Virus record (IMG/VR): IMGVR_UViG_2531839236_000006
Source: a virus
Lineage: Duplodnaviria; Heunggongvirae; Uroviricota; Caudoviricetes
Strand: one strand, 5' to 3'
Length of the DNA: 4,272 bases
Shown: one piece after another, positions 1 to 4,207 of the stretch
Layout of the letters: each line of letters opens with the position of its first letter
Position numbering within the stretch: the first letter of the stretch is position 1
Notes under the pieces: model-generated
Told to the model about the DNA's origin: nothing
What the model saw: the letters and a program-made list of their open reading frames with translations, nothing else
The model's database searches: none
Position numbers and translations under genes: made by a program

Positions 1-476
1 CTCAGATTGGCGCGATGACTGAACAGCAAATCCGGCAGGTCTGCCGTCAGTGCATGGACCGCTGCCGGGCGGGTGAAACGTGGCCTCCGGACCTGGCTGA
101 GTTTGTGGCGTTGATTTCGGAGAGCGGGGCAAATCCATTTGGCCTGACGGTGGATGCCGTGATGGAGGAGTACCGTCGCTGGAGGAATGAATCCTGGCGG
201 TACGACGGGAGTGATAAATACCCGTGGCCACAGCCGGTGCTGTACCACATTTGCCTCGAGATGCGTGACAGAGGGATTGAGCGGCAGATGACGGAAGGTG
301 AGTTAAAACGACTTGCAGAACGGCAACTGACGAAATGGGCAAAGCAAGTTGGTAACGGGATGAGTATTCCCCCGATCCGGAGACAACTCGCATCGCCGAA
401 GTGCCCGCAAGGGCCAACGCCAATTGAATTACTGAAACAGGAATACGAGCGCCGGAAGGCGGCTGGTTTTGTTTGA
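1..476 (+). CDS. Replication protein P-like (lambda P family), C-terminal part; 5' end lies upstream of the window
   Basis: Reading frame is open from the window edge (no stop in frame between 1 and the ATG at 15) to TGA 474-476. The translation shows motifs that I recall from the C-terminal half of lambda P (FVA..., YPW..., T-x-x-EL-[KR]-R-x-A-x-x-L), recalled from memory and not aligned. The ATG at 15 is probably an internal Met. Confidence 0.7.
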   Translation, partial: QIGAMTEQQIRQVCRQCMDRCRAGETWPPDLAEFVALISESGANPFGLTVDAVMEEYRRWRNESWRYDGSDKYPWPQPVLYHICLEMRDRGIERQMTEGELKRLAERQLTKWAKQVGNGMSIPPIRRQLASPKCPQGPTPIELLKQEYERRKAAGFV

Positions 477-509: not shown

Positions 510-1226
510 ATGGAAACCGTATCTGACGCACTGAAAGCACTGAAAAGAGCCTCTTCACATGTGGTGGCAGCTCGCCTTGGAATTAGTCGTGAAGAGGCTG
601 TCAACGAACTGTGGAAACTGAAACGCCGTGGAGAAGCGGATAACAAGGGGGCGATATGGTGGCTGACTCAGGCTGGTGAAAGTGAACCGGTGTCACCGGT
701 ACCGAAAGTGACGGCGCAAATGCTGACAGAGGCGATTGAACAACATGGCCCACAAACGGCGGATGAACTGGCATTGATGTTCGGAATTACCTCCCGCCGG
801 GCGAATTCATCGCTGGCAATGGCAATCAGCAAAGGGTGTCTGATTCGCGTGAATCAGGATGGTAAATTTCGTTACTGCATACCGGGCGTTGATTTACCGG
901 CAGAGCCGAAAGCAGCATCCGTAGCTGAAACGGAGGGTAAAGCCCTTCCTCAGCCAGCTGGTGTTGCGTTACCAGTCCAGGAAACGGCTGCACAGGAAGA
1001 AATTAAAACAGAAGCGGTGGAGGACATTGTGAAGTTGCAGCAATCGTTCACTGAAGCGAAAGCAGATGACCTGATTCTACCATCGCTGCATGTGGCTAAC
1101 CGCGAGCTGCGCCGGGCGAAAAGTAATGTTCAGAAGTGGGAGCGAGTCTGTGCTGCGCTACGGGAACTGAACAAACACAGGGATATTCTCCGGGATATTA
1201 CCGCCACCAGAGAGCAGCAGCGGTGA
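510..1226 (+). CDS. Hypothetical prophage protein, 238 aa: two winged-helix-like segments then a charged, coiled-coil-like C-terminus (possibly DUF1627-like)
   Basis: ATG 510 has GGAGG at 497-501 (8 nt spacing); the track's TTG at 492 lacks an SD. Long ORF in coding-like composition. The N-terminus ([25 protein letters not shown]) and a second segment ([31 protein letters not shown]) look like winged-helix recognition regions. Family name is recalled, not verified. Confidence 0.65.
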
Positions 1227-1540
1227 GTGGCTGGAAGAAGTGGCGCTGGGCTGAAATCCTGATACTCCGGCAGTGTGCGGGAACGATGAGAGTCGAAAGC
1301 ATCGGTTATCTGATTGGCCGTAGTGAGTCAGCCGTCAGGACGAAAGCGCGGGAACTGGGTATCAGCATGATGTTACGGGGTGATTATCACCAGTCAGCCA
1401 AATGTTCACAGCGTGATATTGAGCTGGCGTGGCAACTGCATCAGCGTGGTGTACCCCGACGGGAAATTGCCGAAAAGTTTGGGATGAAGTTGGGCGCAGT
1501 GAATAACTACGTTTATTTCGACAGGAGGGTTCAGGAGTGA
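1223..1540 (+). CDS. Small DNA-binding protein with two tandem HTH-like repeats
   Basis: GTG 1223 overlaps the upstream stop TGA 1224-1226 (GTGA coupling); alternative start ATG 1286. Two copies of a W-x2-[ED]-x3-L...G-x-S/P-x2-IA-x2-[LF]G-x7-V pattern (about 1232-1380 and 1410-1520). Stop TGA 1538-1540. Confidence 0.55.
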
Positions 1541-1839
1541 GGGTGAGGGTTTATATCGCCGGTCCGATGACGGGATATGAAAATTTTAACCGCGAGGCAT
1601 TTCACAAAACGGAAGAGGTGCTGAAACGGGAAGGGCATACCGTTTTAAACCCGGCAGTACTTCCGGACGGGCTGACTCAGCCACACTACATGGATATTTG
1701 CATGGCAATGCTCCGTTGCGTGGATGCGGTTTACATGCTGAAAGGCTGGCAGCAGTCGGCAGGTGCAGGGGCTGAGCTGGCACTGGAGGAGAAACCGGGC
1801 CATGCGGTGATTTTTCAGGAGGTGGGCAGTGAATATTGA
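1537..1839 (+). CDS. DUF4406 family protein (nucleoside 2-deoxyribosyltransferase-like fold)
   Basis: GTG 1537 overlaps the upstream stop (GTGA), with AGGAGGG at 1523-1529. The translation RVYIAGPMTG...N...F......L...GH.V.NP......D.V..L.GW..S.GA..E...A...G..V fits the DUF4406 / deoxyribosyltransferase-like signature as I recall it. Confidence 0.8.
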   Translation: MRVRVYIAGPMTGYENFNREAFHKTEEVLKREGHTVLNPAVLPDGLTQPHYMDICMAMLRCVDAVYMLKGWQQSAGAGAELALEEKPGHAVIFQEVGSEY

Positions 1840-2146
1840 CCCGGCGATAACGATTGATATGGCCCTGAACGCCGGCCTGGCACTTCTTGGTTATTTCTAC
1901 ATTATGTTCTGCAGCGGACGATGGCTGTCACTGTTGTTCATGAAAAAATGGAATAAACGCCGTAAGCAGGAGCAACGCCAGAAGGCAATGGATGCATTTT
2001 TCGAAGCCTTCGGAATTGACGGCATGGAACCAGGGGATCCAGCTCGCGCAATCAGCAGAGGGGGTGTAGTAATCCTTGTATATCGGAGTGAAGAGAAAAA
2101 TGACGATCACAAAACAACGTGTAGAAGAAATCATATCCCGCATTGA
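1829..2146 (+). CDS. Small membrane protein: one predicted TM helix followed by a basic stretch
   Basis: GTG 1829 is preceded by a strong SD AGGAGG at 1817-1822 (6 nt spacing) and overlaps the 3' end of the DUF4406 gene by 11 nt. Hydrophobic segment ALNAGLALLGYFYIMFCSGRWLSLLF is followed by KKWNKRRKQEQRQK. The 3' end overlaps the next gene by 47 nt in another frame, so the distal part is less certain. Confidence 0.45.
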   Translation: MNIDPAITIDMALNAGLALLGYFYIMFCSGRWLSLLFMKKWNKRRKQEQRQKAMDAFFEAFGIDGMEPGDPARAISRGGVVILVYRSEEKNDDHKTTCRRNHIPH

Positions 2147-2417
2147 AATGTATGGACATGGTGCAGGGTATATCGCAGACGAGGTTAATGATCTGGCTAT
2201 ACTGGCGCTGAATTTATCAAATATCGCGAACCTGAAGCGATACGAGCTTGATATGGGAGGTTGCGACTCGTGCGGTCAGGATTGTGGCGCTGATATGACT
2301 GAAGATCCTGATGGTGATTATGTCCTGTTTGATGACGTGGTTAAGTTGTTTGAATTTGATACAACCACTCAAAAGTTAGAAATCCCGGCAAAGGAGGCAG
2401 CCAGTGGGCAAGATTGA
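2100..2417 (+). CDS. Hypothetical protein, 105 aa, acidic C-terminal half
   Basis: ATG 2100 with GGAG at 2085-2088; the track's start at 2076 is a TTG without an SD. Stop TGA 2415-2417. No recognisable motif beyond a Cys/Asp-rich stretch (GGCDSCGQDCGAD). Confidence 0.6.
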   Translation: MTITKQRVEEIISRIEMYGHGAGYIADEVNDLAILALNLSNIANLKRYELDMGGCDSCGQDCGADMTEDPDGDYVLFDDVVKLFEFDTTTQKLEIPAKEAASGQD

Positions 2418-2841
2418 CTATCAGGCACTGCGTGAGGCAGCACAAAACTATCAATCGACGCTGGCGTGGTATCAGGCTACCCCGGACAGCCCAAATGCTG
2501 AACGGGATTGTGATGCGGCTCTTGCTGCGTTTAAGCGTCACATCCGTCATCGGGAAGCGGATATTATCGCTGATTTGCTGGATGGACTGGAAGAAGCAAA
2601 ATCACAACTCAACGAGCAGCGTGAGTATTACGAAGGCGTTATCTCTGATGGGAGCAAGCGTATTGCTGAACTGGAAGCGCGGGAAGTTCAATTACCGACT
2701 CGCTACGACCTTCGATATGGACACCCGATAAATGCAGATGAGCGACATGTCATGATACCTAAAGAAAATGGCAGTTGGCTTTACCTGATTGACCTAGAAC
2801 ACGCATTACGCGTCGCTGGCATTCGCATCAAAGGAGAGTGA
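2404..2841 (+). CDS. Hypothetical coiled-coil protein, 145 aa, possibly ead/Ea22-like
   Basis: GTG 2404 with strong SD AAGGAGG at 2391-2397 (6 nt spacing); overlaps the upstream gene by 14 nt. The N-terminus IDYQALREAAQ and a central heptad-like charged region resemble prophage Ea22-like proteins as I remember them; this is unverified. Confidence 0.6.
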   Translation: MGKIDYQALREAAQNYQSTLAWYQATPDSPNAERDCDAALAAFKRHIRHREADIIADLLDGLEEAKSQLNEQREYYEGVISDGSKRIAELEAREVQLPTRYDLRYGHPINADERHVMIPKENGSWLYLIDLEHALRVAGIRIKGE

Positions 2842-2842
2842 G

Positions 2843-3034
2843 ATGAACGGACAAATATCAATTGTTCGACCAGGAGCATGTGACGATCGCGAAATACGAA
2901 TGATTATTCGTCTGGCGATGGGGAAAACAATAACTGCTCTCATTACTCCAGAAAATCTCGCATTAGCATTAACAGGAAAGTCAGACATGCCAGTAGAGCT
3001 AAAGCTGCGAAATGTTGAGATTAAGGTGAAATAG
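2843..3034 (+). CDS. Small hypothetical protein, 63 aa, AT-richer than its neighbours
   Basis: ATG 2843 lies 1 nt after the upstream stop (TGA 2839-2841), with AAGGAGAG at 2831-2838. Stop TAG 3032-3034. GC is about 41% by my hand count versus the low-to-mid 50s elsewhere. Confidence 0.5.
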   Translation: MNGQISIVRPGACDDREIRMIIRLAMGKTITALITPENLALALTGKSDMPVELKLRNVEIKVK

Positions 3035-3036
3035 CT

Positions 3037-3594
3037 ATGACCACTATTACCAAAGATCGACTGCTGACAATCCAGCATTGGCGCGAAACATACGGACCGG
3101 GTAGCAACGTTGTGCTTCCAGCAGAAGAAGCGGAAGAGCTGGCACGGATTGCGCTGGCATCACTGGCAGCAGTATCGGATGAACGAGCAGCCTATGAATT
3201 ATTTATGGAGAAGCGTTTCGGAGAATCTGTAGATCGCCGCAGAGCAAAAAATGGCGATAGAGAATACATGGCATGGGATATGGCGCTTGGCTGGATTATC
3301 TGGTGTCACCGCGCCGCCATGCTTCAGGCTGGAAACTTTCGGGAAAATAAGGGTTCGTCAACCAATAATTTTCGGATAATCTCGGAAACGTCAACCAACT
3401 CTCCGGCAATCCCTGATGAGGTGTTGTCCGCAATCCTGAAGGTCGCCAGGCTTCGTGCAGATTTCGATGCTTCTGAAGTGGACAGGCGAGGTATCGGTAG
3501 TTGTCTGGATGAGGCCGAGCAAGAACTTATCGTTACCATTAACGAATACGCCAGTCAGATCGCAGTAGAAGCGACACAGGGGGAGAACCAATGA
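3037..3594 (+). CDS. Hypothetical protein, 185 aa
   Basis: ATG 3037 lies 2 nt after the upstream stop, with AAGGTGA at 3024-3030. Long ORF in coding-like composition; stop TGA 3592-3594. No motif I can assign. Confidence 0.65.
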   Translation: MTTITKDRLLTIQHWRETYGPGSNVVLPAEEAEELARIALASLAAVSDERAAYELFMEKRFGESVDRRRAKNGDREYMAWDMALGWIIWCHRAAMLQAGNFRENKGSSTNNFRIISETSTNSPAIPDEVLSAILKVARLRADFDASEVDRRGIGSCLDEAEQELIVTINEYASQIAVEATQGENQ

Positions 3595-3703: not shown

Positions 3704-3808
3704 ATGTCGGATGATATTTCACTGGTAATGGAAGGCGCTCTGGCTGTTATTGCTGTTGTGGGTGTTTACTGCCTGGTTGTGTTTTTGATGGAGCGCCTGG
3801 GGAACTGA
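3704..3808 (+). CDS. Candidate 34-aa single-TM micro-protein (MSDDISLVMEGALAVIAVVGVYCLVVFLMERLGN)
   Basis: ATG 3704 is preceded by AGGGAGGG at 3692-3699. Acidic N-terminus, about 20 hydrophobic residues, charged C-terminus; stop TGA 3806-3808. Confidence 0.4.
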   Translation: MSDDISLVMEGALAVIAVVGVYCLVVFLMERLGN

Positions 3809-3882: not shown

Positions 3883-3930
3883 GGGTGCTTGAGGCTGTCT
3901 GCCTCGGGCATGCCACCGTAAGGCAGACAG
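3883..3930 (+). promoter_or_regulatory. hok mRNA 5' leader: tac-like 5' segment plus a 10-bp stem-loop
   Basis: 3883-3894 GGGTGCTTGAGG is complementary to 4257-4269. Perfect inverted repeat CTGTCTGCCT (3895-3904) / AGGCAGACAG (3921-3930) with a 16-nt loop. No U-tract follows, so it is not an intrinsic terminator. Confidence 0.55.
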
Positions 3931-4003
3931 AGAAAAGCCCCAGTTAACATTACGCGTCCTGCAAGACGCTTAACATTAATCTGAGGCCCAATCTATGCTT
4001 CAC
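3930..4003 (-). ncRNA. sok: Putative Sok-like antisense RNA (antitoxin of the hok locus); ends approximate
   Basis: The minus-strand promoter predicts a start near 4003. The transcript would be antisense to the mok SD (GAGG at 3983-3986) and mok start codon (3995-3997). On the minus strand a compound hairpin (outer stem 3937-3943 / 3981-3987 with one mismatch, inner stem 3954-3958 / 3965-3969) is followed by UUUUCUCU (complement of 3929-3936), which is terminator-like. Confidence 0.5.
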
Positions 4004-4207
4004 AAACGTAGGTTAGCCTCTTACGCGCCGAAAGGCAAGGAGAAGCAGGTTATGAAGCAGCAAAAGGCGATGTTAATCGCCCTGATCGTCATCTGTTTAA
4101 CCGTCATAGTGACGGCACTGGTAACGAGGAAAGACCTCTGCGAGGTACGAATCCGAACCGGCCAGACGGAGGTCGCTGTCTTCACAGCTTACGAACCTGA
4201 GGAGTAA
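3995..4207 (+). CDS. mok: Mok-like reading frame (modulation of killing), 70 codons, in frame with and extending hok
   Basis: ATG 3995 with weak SD GAGG at 3983-3986, running in the same frame through hok to TGA 4205-4207. Same layout as I recall for mokC/hokC in E. coli K-12. Confidence 0.55.
   Translation: MLHKRRLASYAPKGKEKQVMKQQKAMLIALIVICLTVIVTALVTRKDLCEVRIRTGQTEVAVFTAYEPEE
4010..4038 (-). promoter_or_regulatory. Putative sok promoter
   Basis: Read on the minus strand: -35 TTGCCT (complement of 4033-4038), 17-nt spacer, -10 TAACCT (complement of 4010-4015). Located inside the mok reading frame, as in the plasmid R1 hok/sok model. Confidence 0.4.
4052..4207 (+). CDS. hokD: Hok/Gef family type I toxin, 51 aa, HokD (RelF)-type
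   Basis: ATG 4052 with AAGGAG at 4037-4042. The translation MKQQKAMLIALIVICLTVIVTALVTRKDLCEVRIRTGQTEVAVFTAYEPEE has the Hok architecture (N-terminal TM helix, conserved Cys, periplasmic tail). It matches my memory of E. coli K-12 HokD essentially residue for residue and differs at several positions from HokC. Confidence 0.9.
   Translation: MKQQKAMLIALIVICLTVIVTALVTRKDLCEVRIRTGQTEVAVFTAYEPEE

Follow-up and report, generated by a model that had tools for sequence, protein, structure and literature searches.

The characterised enzymes that appear closest to the phage protein family DUF4406 are DNPH1/Rcl, a 2'-deoxynucleoside 5'-phosphate N-hydrolase that hydrolyses hydroxymethyl-deoxyuridine monophosphate; MilB and BcmB, N-glycosidases of cytidine monophosphate (CMP) and hydroxymethyl-CMP; the nucleoside 2'-deoxyribosyltransferases (NDTs; Pfam PF05014), for instance the Lactobacillus leichmannii NDT and PDT; and the phage enzyme DmtZ, all of which seem to have in common with DUF4406 a fold and a Tyr...S/D-x-G-x-x-x-E signature. 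The catalytic triad of the NDT superfamily is Tyr-Asp/Asn-Glu; the nucleoside-specific NDTs hold the 5'-OH group by an Asp or Asn, whereas nucleotide-specific hydrolases have uncharged small residues at this place, and in DmtZ a Gly located four residues ahead of the Glu (Gly99) contacts the phosphate (PMC12884076). DmtZ, which was described from the Z-genome phages Ghobes (Gordonia) and Wayne (Arthrobacter) as a hydrolase of deoxyadenosine monophosphate and a deoxyribose-5-phosphate transferase (PMC12884076), is the only biochemically characterised phage-encoded enzyme of this superfamily that we found. Here, we analyzed a DUF4406 gene, together with the DUF4752 gene that overlaps its 3' end, in a stretch of 4,272 nucleotides (nt) from the virus record IMGVR_UViG_2531839236_000006, which is termed the window below. 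We propose, with moderate confidence, that the DUF4406 protein is a DNPH1/MilB/DmtZ-like accessory enzyme, and that the DUF4752 gene is an unrelated neighbour brought to it by mosaic recombination rather than its partner in a functional module.

The open reading frame (ORF) that the initial annotation had assigned to DUF4406 is present as called (Table 1) and matches the Pfam profile PF14359 with E=2e-33 and 115.1 bits (cut-off 22), residues 4-92 being aligned to profile positions 2-90 of 91. An alternative in-frame start, the GTG at 1543, would give the N-terminus MRVYIAGP that is found in most homologues and is preceded by GGAG at 1533-1536; on these grounds it appears equally plausible as the GTG at 1537. 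The PGAP annotation of Escherichia coli O157:H7 EDL933 lists both genes under these family names, the DUF4406 gene being codon-for-codon identical there, and both are already in public annotation, with exactly these names, in hundreds of E. coli genomes. The DUF4406 family comprises about 17,600 clusters (17,644 representatives at 50% identity, E<=1e-3) and occurs in Enterobacterales, Vibrio, Shewanella, Aeromonas, Burkholderiales, Planctomycetota, Chloroflexota, and Actinomycetes, and it is present in 521 sequenced phage records. In E. coli prophages, the gene is under purifying selection, with a ratio of non-synonymous to synonymous substitution rates (dN/dS) of ~0.08 over 898 allele pairs. 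In almost all cases, DUF4406 stands alone as a domain of about 95-100 residues; 51 longer DUF4406 proteins were inspected for fusion partners that could hint at function, and no recurrent second Pfam domain was found in any of them. Three of these 51 relatives reach PF05014 (Nuc_deoxyrib_tr) at E<=1e-3, and two touch DUF1937. The window protein itself has no PF05014 match at E<=0.1 and no NCBIfam match, and cross-matches DUF1937 weakly (E=0.011).

The names under which these proteins are deposited are inconsistent. PHROG 355, which corresponds to the DUF4406 family, is named nucleoside 2'-deoxyribosyltransferase, and homologues in phage records are labelled NDT, CMP N-glycosidase, MazG-like or dCMP (deoxycytidine monophosphate) deaminase; these names were transferred by similarity. 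We considered whether the last two labels denote fusion proteins and rejected this, as the proteins in question are single-domain and 122-126 residues long. Two DUF4406-like proteins, Kepler gp54 (MH834616.1) and Optimus gp161 (NC_041844.1), are named 'deoxycytidylate deaminase' and 'MazG-like pyrophosphatase', respectively, which are likely mis-annotations that could propagate. A literature search gave three mentions of DUF4406, all of them incidental, and none of PF14359 or DUF1937.

The structural model of the window DUF4406 protein has a predicted local distance difference test score (pLDDT) of 87.9 and a predicted template modelling score (pTM) of 0.82. A Foldseek comparison of this model with the PDB returned 26 top matches that all belong to the NDT superfamily (NDTs, the DUF1937 structure 1t1j, and DNPH1/Rcl), NDT-superfamily enzymes ranking first with probability 1.00; MilB and BcmB follow further down the same list, and NDT-superfamily enzymes are placed clearly above TIR domains. 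According to this model, DUF4406 is a minimal, four-stranded, ~95-residue member of the NDT/DNPH1/MilB fold, which is a flavodoxin-like α/β fold. Sequence searches of the PDB, both with the single protein and with a profile of 40 sequences, found no relative of DUF4406, so that it is the fold comparison alone that ties the family to solved structures.

Residue conservation was assessed in 70 diverse members of the family and 39 close homologues. Residues G9, F22, P39, P43, Y51, and S74 are invariant across the diverse set, G76 and E80 are each kept in 69 of its 70 members, and position 6 is occupied by Tyr in 63 and by Phe in six; a loop of the form LNPxxLPxG is likewise invariant in the family. 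To place these residues, the family was aligned by hhalign with human DNPH1 and L. leichmannii NDT, whose sequences were checked against the PDB, and with the DmtZ domain of phage Wayne taken from its GenBank record. The broad family alignment (A4) gave collinear alignments, while the shallow alignment (A1; effective number of sequences, Neff, 1.7) yielded fragments only. In three separate runs, S74-x-G76-x-x-x-E80 fell on SLGVGYE of DNPH1, DVGLGME of NDT and SWGVPAE of DmtZ (E=0.04-0.1); those with DNPH1 and NDT extend over the full length and also bring Y6 onto the strand-1 Tyr of both enzymes, and the DmtZ alignment covers residues 25-92. Since the three weak alignments agree on this motif, E80 is predicted to correspond to the nucleophilic Glu; in DNPH1 that residue has been changed to Gln in PDB entry 8qhq. 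The secondary structure of the model around E80 (strand, loop, opening turns of a helix) fits the position of a catalytic Glu. A glutamate at the predicted catalytic position, for which the initial annotation had proposed to look, is conserved. In the same weak alignments, the invariant S74 coincides with the DNPH1 Ser and with the 5'-OH-binding Asp92 of NDT, and G76 with Gly99 of DmtZ. Because invariant, uncharged S74 and G76 would occupy the positions of the phosphate pocket, a 5'-phosphorylated substrate is favoured, and the activity of DUF4406 would most likely be N-glycosidic cleavage of a 5'-phosphorylated nucleotide.

Among the characterised enzymes, DNPH1 appears to resemble DUF4406 in its strand-1 Tyr and in an S-x-G-x-x-x-E motif whose spacing is the same, E80 being aligned to the catalytic Glu and S74 to the Ser of PSLGVGYE; however, DNPH1 has ~145 residues and five strands against ~95 residues and four strands in DUF4406, the C-terminal part by which it provides a second phosphate-binding Ser from the partner subunit is missing from DUF4406, and the sequence similarity between the two is not significant (E=0.04). 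MilB and BcmB are nucleotide-specific hydrolases of the same superfamily, but the identity is 18%, and MilB comes from antibiotic biosynthesis clusters, not from phages. The NDTs share the fold and, by weak alignment, the Tyr and the position of the Glu nucleophile, and differ in the lack of a PF05014 match to the window protein, in the replacement of Asp92 by Ser, and in length, DUF4406 being about a third shorter. DmtZ acts on deoxynucleoside monophosphates and its SWGVPAE aligns with SAGAGAE of the window protein; in contrast to DUF4406, it has ~145 residues and is associated with dutZ and purZ0 in phages whose DNA is modified, genes that the lambdoid prophage does not have. We also considered DmtZ as a member of DUF4406 and rejected this, since it has no Pfam match at all, as is also stated in PMC12884076. 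DUF1937 (Pseudomonas PA1492, PDB 1t1j) is similar to DUF4406 in its small size and in the Pfam cross-match given above, but is itself uncharacterised and gives no functional information.

In the mechanism that we propose, Tyr6 would orient Glu80 for an attack on C1' of a (deoxy)ribonucleotide, the base would be expelled through a covalent glycosyl-enzyme intermediate, and the sugar phosphate would be passed to water or possibly to another base. By analogy with its relatives, the protein is probably a dimer, and its activity would change or clean up the nucleotide pool in the early phase of lytic growth. Several observations weigh against this proposal. The alignments to characterised enzymes are not significant (E=0.04-0.1). 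The third residue of the triad, an Asp or Asn in the helix before the Glu-bearing strand, has no clear equivalent in DUF4406: D53 is invariant in close relatives but is found in only 30 of the 70 diverse members, and at position 55, 47 of these members have Cys and nine have Asp. DUF4406 lacks the C-terminal ~50 residues that in NDT and DNPH1 give active-site residues to the neighbouring subunit, and therefore its specificity, and even its activity, could differ from theirs. Moreover, the literature search found no biochemical report on any DUF4406 protein.

Other functions have to be weighed against nucleotide N-glycosidic cleavage. That DUF4406 is a true nucleoside 2'-deoxyribosyltransferase, which would swap bases between deoxynucleosides, is what PHROG 355 and many GenBank phage records assert by name; NDTs also top the Foldseek list, and the YIAGPM strand-loop of DUF4406 both resembles and is aligned by hhalign to the strand-1 region IYFGAGWF of L. 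leichmannii NDT. However, the names disagree with each other within the family, PF05014 is not matched by the window protein even at E=0.1, and the invariant Ser74 stands in place of the 5'-OH-binding Asp, an uncharged residue at this position being the mark of nucleotide-specific hydrolases; we regard this function as improbable. An outside chance is given to a role in phage-host conflict, in which a TIR- or NDT-like DUF4406 protein, as a counter-defence or a prophage exclusion factor, would cleave or bind nucleotides that are derived from NAD+ or are otherwise signalling or toxic. Retron Ec86 indeed uses NDT-like effectors, the DUF4406 gene lies in a variable accessory region beside moron-like genes including hok, and the family is very widespread in phages. 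Against such a role, neither DUF4406 nor DUF4752 nor their two neighbours have a PADLOC match at E<=1, the DUF4406 protein has no TIR-family Pfam match at E<=0.1, the Foldseek ranking favours NDT-superfamily enzymes over TIR, the conserved motif, S-x-G-x-x-x-E, belongs to the NDT superfamily, and no sensor or partner gene is conserved nearby in 48 diverse genomes.

There is also a slim chance that DUF4406 represents an unrecognised class of minimal, ~95-residue nucleotide N-glycosidases with a substrate of its own, which might be a damaged, modified or defence-derived nucleotide that phages remove in early infection. A catalytic arrangement unlike the classical Tyr-Asp-Glu is conceivable because the LNPxxLPxG loop is invariant and position 55 is most often Cys. 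The allele in the window has three substitutions in or just after the predicted catalytic helix, R78G, A84E and L87P, which are each a single-nucleotide change from the nearest alleles and all lie less than 10 residues from E80. A84E and L87P are found in none of 109 homologues (0 of 39 close and 0 of 70 diverse ones); G78 does not occur in any of the 39 close homologues, and in the diverse set the six commonest residues at this position do not include it. The family keeps A84 in at least 90% of its members, and this residue lines up with the Ala in the ELGxA motif. Compared with its closest relative, the window allele has two synonymous and six non-synonymous codon differences, and its dN/dS to the nearest alleles is 0.29-0.66 against 0.08 in the family. 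These features suggest that the O157 allele may be attenuated. They would also be expected if the window copy, i.e., the allele of the O157:H7 prophage Sp6, were an inactive or decaying remnant of a family that is itself enzymatic, which we consider unlikely, although by no means negligible. The ORF is intact, however, and retains Y6, S74, G76, and E80; it still reaches 115 bits with the Pfam profile, the comparison rests on few substitutions, and the allele is stably kept in 278 complete genomes, even though these are near-identical copies.

The initial annotation had further suggested that DUF4406 and the overlapping small gene are likely co-expressed, and had raised the question whether they are functionally linked. 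Both the 11-nt overlap (DUF4752 GTG at 1829-1831, DUF4406 TGA at 1837-1839) and the strong Shine-Dalgarno (SD) sequence that it had described can be read directly from the DNA: AGGAGGTG at 1817-1824 is an 8-nt SD match that ends 4 nt before the DUF4752 GTG (6 nt from the GGAGG core). Co-expression is plausible as well, since the genes of the window are tightly packed and all co-directional, forming one operon of overlapping genes, while promoter-like sites (5 found, 4.2 expected) and terminator-like sites (4 found, 3.5 expected) in the window are at chance level. DUF4406 and DUF4752 are probably co-transcribed and translationally coupled, like all genes of this operon. A functional pairing, by contrast, was not borne out by the distribution of the two genes, for which we examined 80 DUF4406 loci of viral contigs, the closest ones at 85-99% identity, and 79 DUF4752 loci with enough upstream sequence. 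DUF4752 is found downstream of DUF4406 in only 17 of the 80 loci, and in 10 of these it is frameshifted; most of the other loci have an Ead/Ea22-like gene directly 3' of DUF4406, as does the annotated phage Rac-SA53. Conversely, DUF4406 is located upstream of DUF4752 in 16 of the 79 loci. The commonest downstream partner of DUF4752 is the PHROG 3126 gene (51 of 79 loci), followed by Ea22 (26 loci), and in Stx phages and PhiR49_2 the DUF4752 gene resides in the early-left operon near ea22, with no DUF4406. Two frameshifts have arisen independently in DUF4752 beside an intact DUF4406, a 4-nt ATGA deletion and the loss of one nucleotide in a T5 run; frameshifted copies are located at 2943-3260 of viral contig L011 and at 3599-3916 of L010. 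In a one-genome-per-species collection, no conserved or DUF4752-like neighbour of DUF4406 was detected across 48 diverse loci, a partial census in which the simple gene caller had missed the small gene in the other 32 of 80 loci; the contexts there are generic and include phage replication, recombination, methylase or lysis genes. The membrane-protein gene is therefore not a conserved neighbour of DUF4406 in either the viral or the diverse loci. The taxonomic ranges differ too: DUF4406 spans many phyla, while a search of 5.8 billion proteins retrieved only 56 clusters of DUF4752, those with a named source all being from E. coli or Shigella.

The sequence of the junction points to how the two genes came together. 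In DNA alignment A5, the window matches Rac-SA53 and viral contig L041 through AGGAGGTG...GTGA, where the next gene in the latter two is ead/Ea22; from the start codon on, the window switches to sequence that in VT2-Sakai follows an unrelated gene, VT2-Sakai sharing only the downstream DUF4752 part. A like joint is found on the 3' side of DUF4752, at GAAGAGAAAAATGA. The two joints, at 1817-1832 (AGGAGGTGGGCAGTGA) and 2090-2103 (GAAGAGAAAAATGA), are SD/start-codon sequences, and relatives change the downstream gene exactly there. Since the same SD and GTG serve Ead/Ea22 in relatives, they constitute a reusable junction and not a sign of partnership. The 11-nt overlap is likewise ordinary, because five successive junctions of the operon overlap, by 4, 4, 11, 47, and 14 nt. 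We suggest that a cassette of DUF4752 and the PHROG 3126 gene was recombined in at the SD/start-codon joint.

The opposite view would be that the two genes make up a functional module, such as a nucleotide enzyme anchored to or regulated by the membrane, and that overlap and coupling exist for that reason. The overlap behind a perfect SD would suit such a module, and, against our reading of the neighbourhood, 424 of 5,426 complete E. coli genomes have the two genes side by side (DUF4406 occurs in 1,115 and DUF4752 in 523 of the 5,426); yet in 278 of the 424 the copies are at least 99% identical and agree with the O157:H7-type records that head the match lists. With 63 of 80 close DUF4406 loci devoid of DUF4752 and 63 of 79 DUF4752 loci devoid of DUF4406, the repeated loss of the DUF4752 frame, the unequal taxonomic spread, the shared SD and GTG, and overlaps of 4-47 nt at every junction, the module is largely refuted by the distribution data and we consider it very improbable. 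The comparisons do not support DUF4406 and DUF4752 as a functional pair, and the two genes appear to adjoin through phage gene shuffling. An apparent DUF4406-DUF4752 fusion protein (P0008), corresponding to window positions 1537-2146, was seen in three Logan assemblies. A real fusion or a programmed frameshift was rejected as its explanation: one base is lost around TTTTTC (1811-1816), a second frameshift is present and there is no slippery heptamer, so that on its sequence the fusion is classed as an artefact or pseudogene.

The ORF of the small overlapping gene was confirmed by a Pfam match to PF15944 (DUF4752; E=7.5e-39, 132.1 bits against a cut-off of 27), in which residues 7-90 span the whole 84-position profile. 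The protein falls in PHROG 667 and 29388 only, both of unknown function; it has no sequence match to anything of known function, and the family name was absent from the literature search. DUF4752 is under purifying selection in E. coli prophages, with dN/dS of ~0.25 over 72 pairs. Its hydrophobic segment is borderline, with a Kyte-Doolittle maximum of 1.54 (residues 11-29) against the usual threshold of 1.6. The 'basic tail' ascribed to this protein exists as a cluster of eight Lys/Arg residues (MKKWNKRRKQEQRQK), but not as a tail: it is juxtamembrane (residues 38-52) and is followed by a short conserved β-hairpin (VVILVYR) and by a variable, disordered stretch of the last 15 residues, which is a property of the 105-residue variants and overlaps the next gene. 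The basic cluster directly after the hydrophobic segment predicts an N-out, C-in topology by the positive-inside rule. In the AF2 (AlphaFold2) model, a helix at residues 5-61 (pLDDT 83-89) and the hairpin at 72-85 are recognised, with an overall pLDDT of 70. DUF4752 is probably a small single-pass (bitopic) membrane protein. Lambdoid early operons carry short single-pass membrane proteins among their accessory genes, and DUF4752 would resemble these in length, predicted topology and position.

Coordinates of the features discussed in the text are collected in Table 1.

Table 1. Genes and sequence features of the 4,272-nt window around the DUF4406 and DUF4752 genes
Feature	Position	Strand	Remarks
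Replication protein P gene	15-476		
DUF1627 gene	510-1226		
Helix-turn-helix gene, upstream of DUF4406	1223-1540	+	PGAP coordinates; PHROG 323
DUF4406 gene, 100 residues from GTG	1537-1839	+	Pfam PF14359
Tyr6 codon	1552-1554	+	Paired by hhalign with Tyr7 of NDT and with the corresponding Tyr of DNPH1
S74-A-G76-A-G-A-E80 codons	1756-1776	+	Predicted active-site loop and beginning of the helix (S-x-G-x-x-x-E), with E80 as the putative nucleophile
R78G (1768-1770), A84E (1786-1788), L87P (1795-1797)	1768-1797	+	In or just after the predicted catalytic helix
SD AGGAGGTG and GTG inside the DUF4406 3' end	1817-1831	+	Mosaic joint used by whichever gene follows; DNA alignment A5
DUF4752 gene, 105 residues, GTG start	1829-2146	+	Pfam PF15944; PHROG 667
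Hydrophobic segment of DUF4752, residues 11-37	1859-1939	+	Conserved in alignment A2
Juxtamembrane basic cluster MKKWNKRRKQEQRQK, residues 38-52, 8 K/R	1940-1984	+	Conserved in alignment A2
PHROG 3126 gene, function unknown	2100-2417	+	PHROG E=2.5e-66; overlaps DUF4752 by 47 nt
Ead/Ea22-like gene	2404-2841	+	Pfam PF13935, E=2e-13

The 4,272 bases of the window match prophage sequence of the Sp6/CP-933 type from E. coli O157:H7, with 99% identity in two pieces and 96% query coverage. By gene content, the window corresponds to the accessory region, early-right and nin-like, of a Rac/lambda-like prophage that belongs to the O157:H7 Sp6 type, an assignment made because the corresponding block of EDL933 sits between the replication genes and RusA with the antiterminator. 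Upstream of DUF4406, the TGA stop of the helix-turn-helix gene overlaps the DUF4406 GTG start as GTGA, and two small genes, followed by the hokD/mokD-sok locus, are located 3' of the Ead/Ea22-like gene. Over residues 65-116, the Ead/Ea22-like protein scores 23.6 bits for the N-terminal domain of MucB_RseB, just past the Pfam threshold of 22.3 bits, which is probably noise from a helical region. In the protein encoded at 3037-3594, the initial ~120 residues are near-identical to the DUF551 protein of EDL933 (92% over 132 aligned residues), while the C-terminal ~60 residues are unrelated to it; the protein as a whole matches no Pfam family. A domain swap seems to have taken place here, which is probably why the match to O157 genomes is in two pieces with 96% coverage. 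A 34-residue, very hydrophobic ORF at 3704-3808 (MSDDISLVMEGALAVIAVVGVYCLVVFLMERLGN; Kyte-Doolittle 2.7) is preceded by the SD sequence GGGAGGG, and EDL933 has in its place an ORF of equal length (105 nt) that is annotated as hypothetical only. The hokD/mokD type I toxin locus occupies positions 3883-4207, with a Pfam Hok match at 3995-4207 (E=3e-23) and an Rfam match to sok (RF01794, 114.9 bits) at 3883-4057 on the + strand.

Taken by itself, the locus adds little, as both genes are already annotated and their suggested pairing fails; it is, nevertheless, a clean example of phage mosaic joints that fall exactly on Shine-Dalgarno/start-codon sequences. The residual value lies in DUF4406 as a family that is very large, phage-associated, and under strong purifying selection. 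Establishing an enzymatic function for a consensus form of DUF4406 would give thousands of phage genes a function, and it would also show whether temperate phages routinely edit nucleotide pools.

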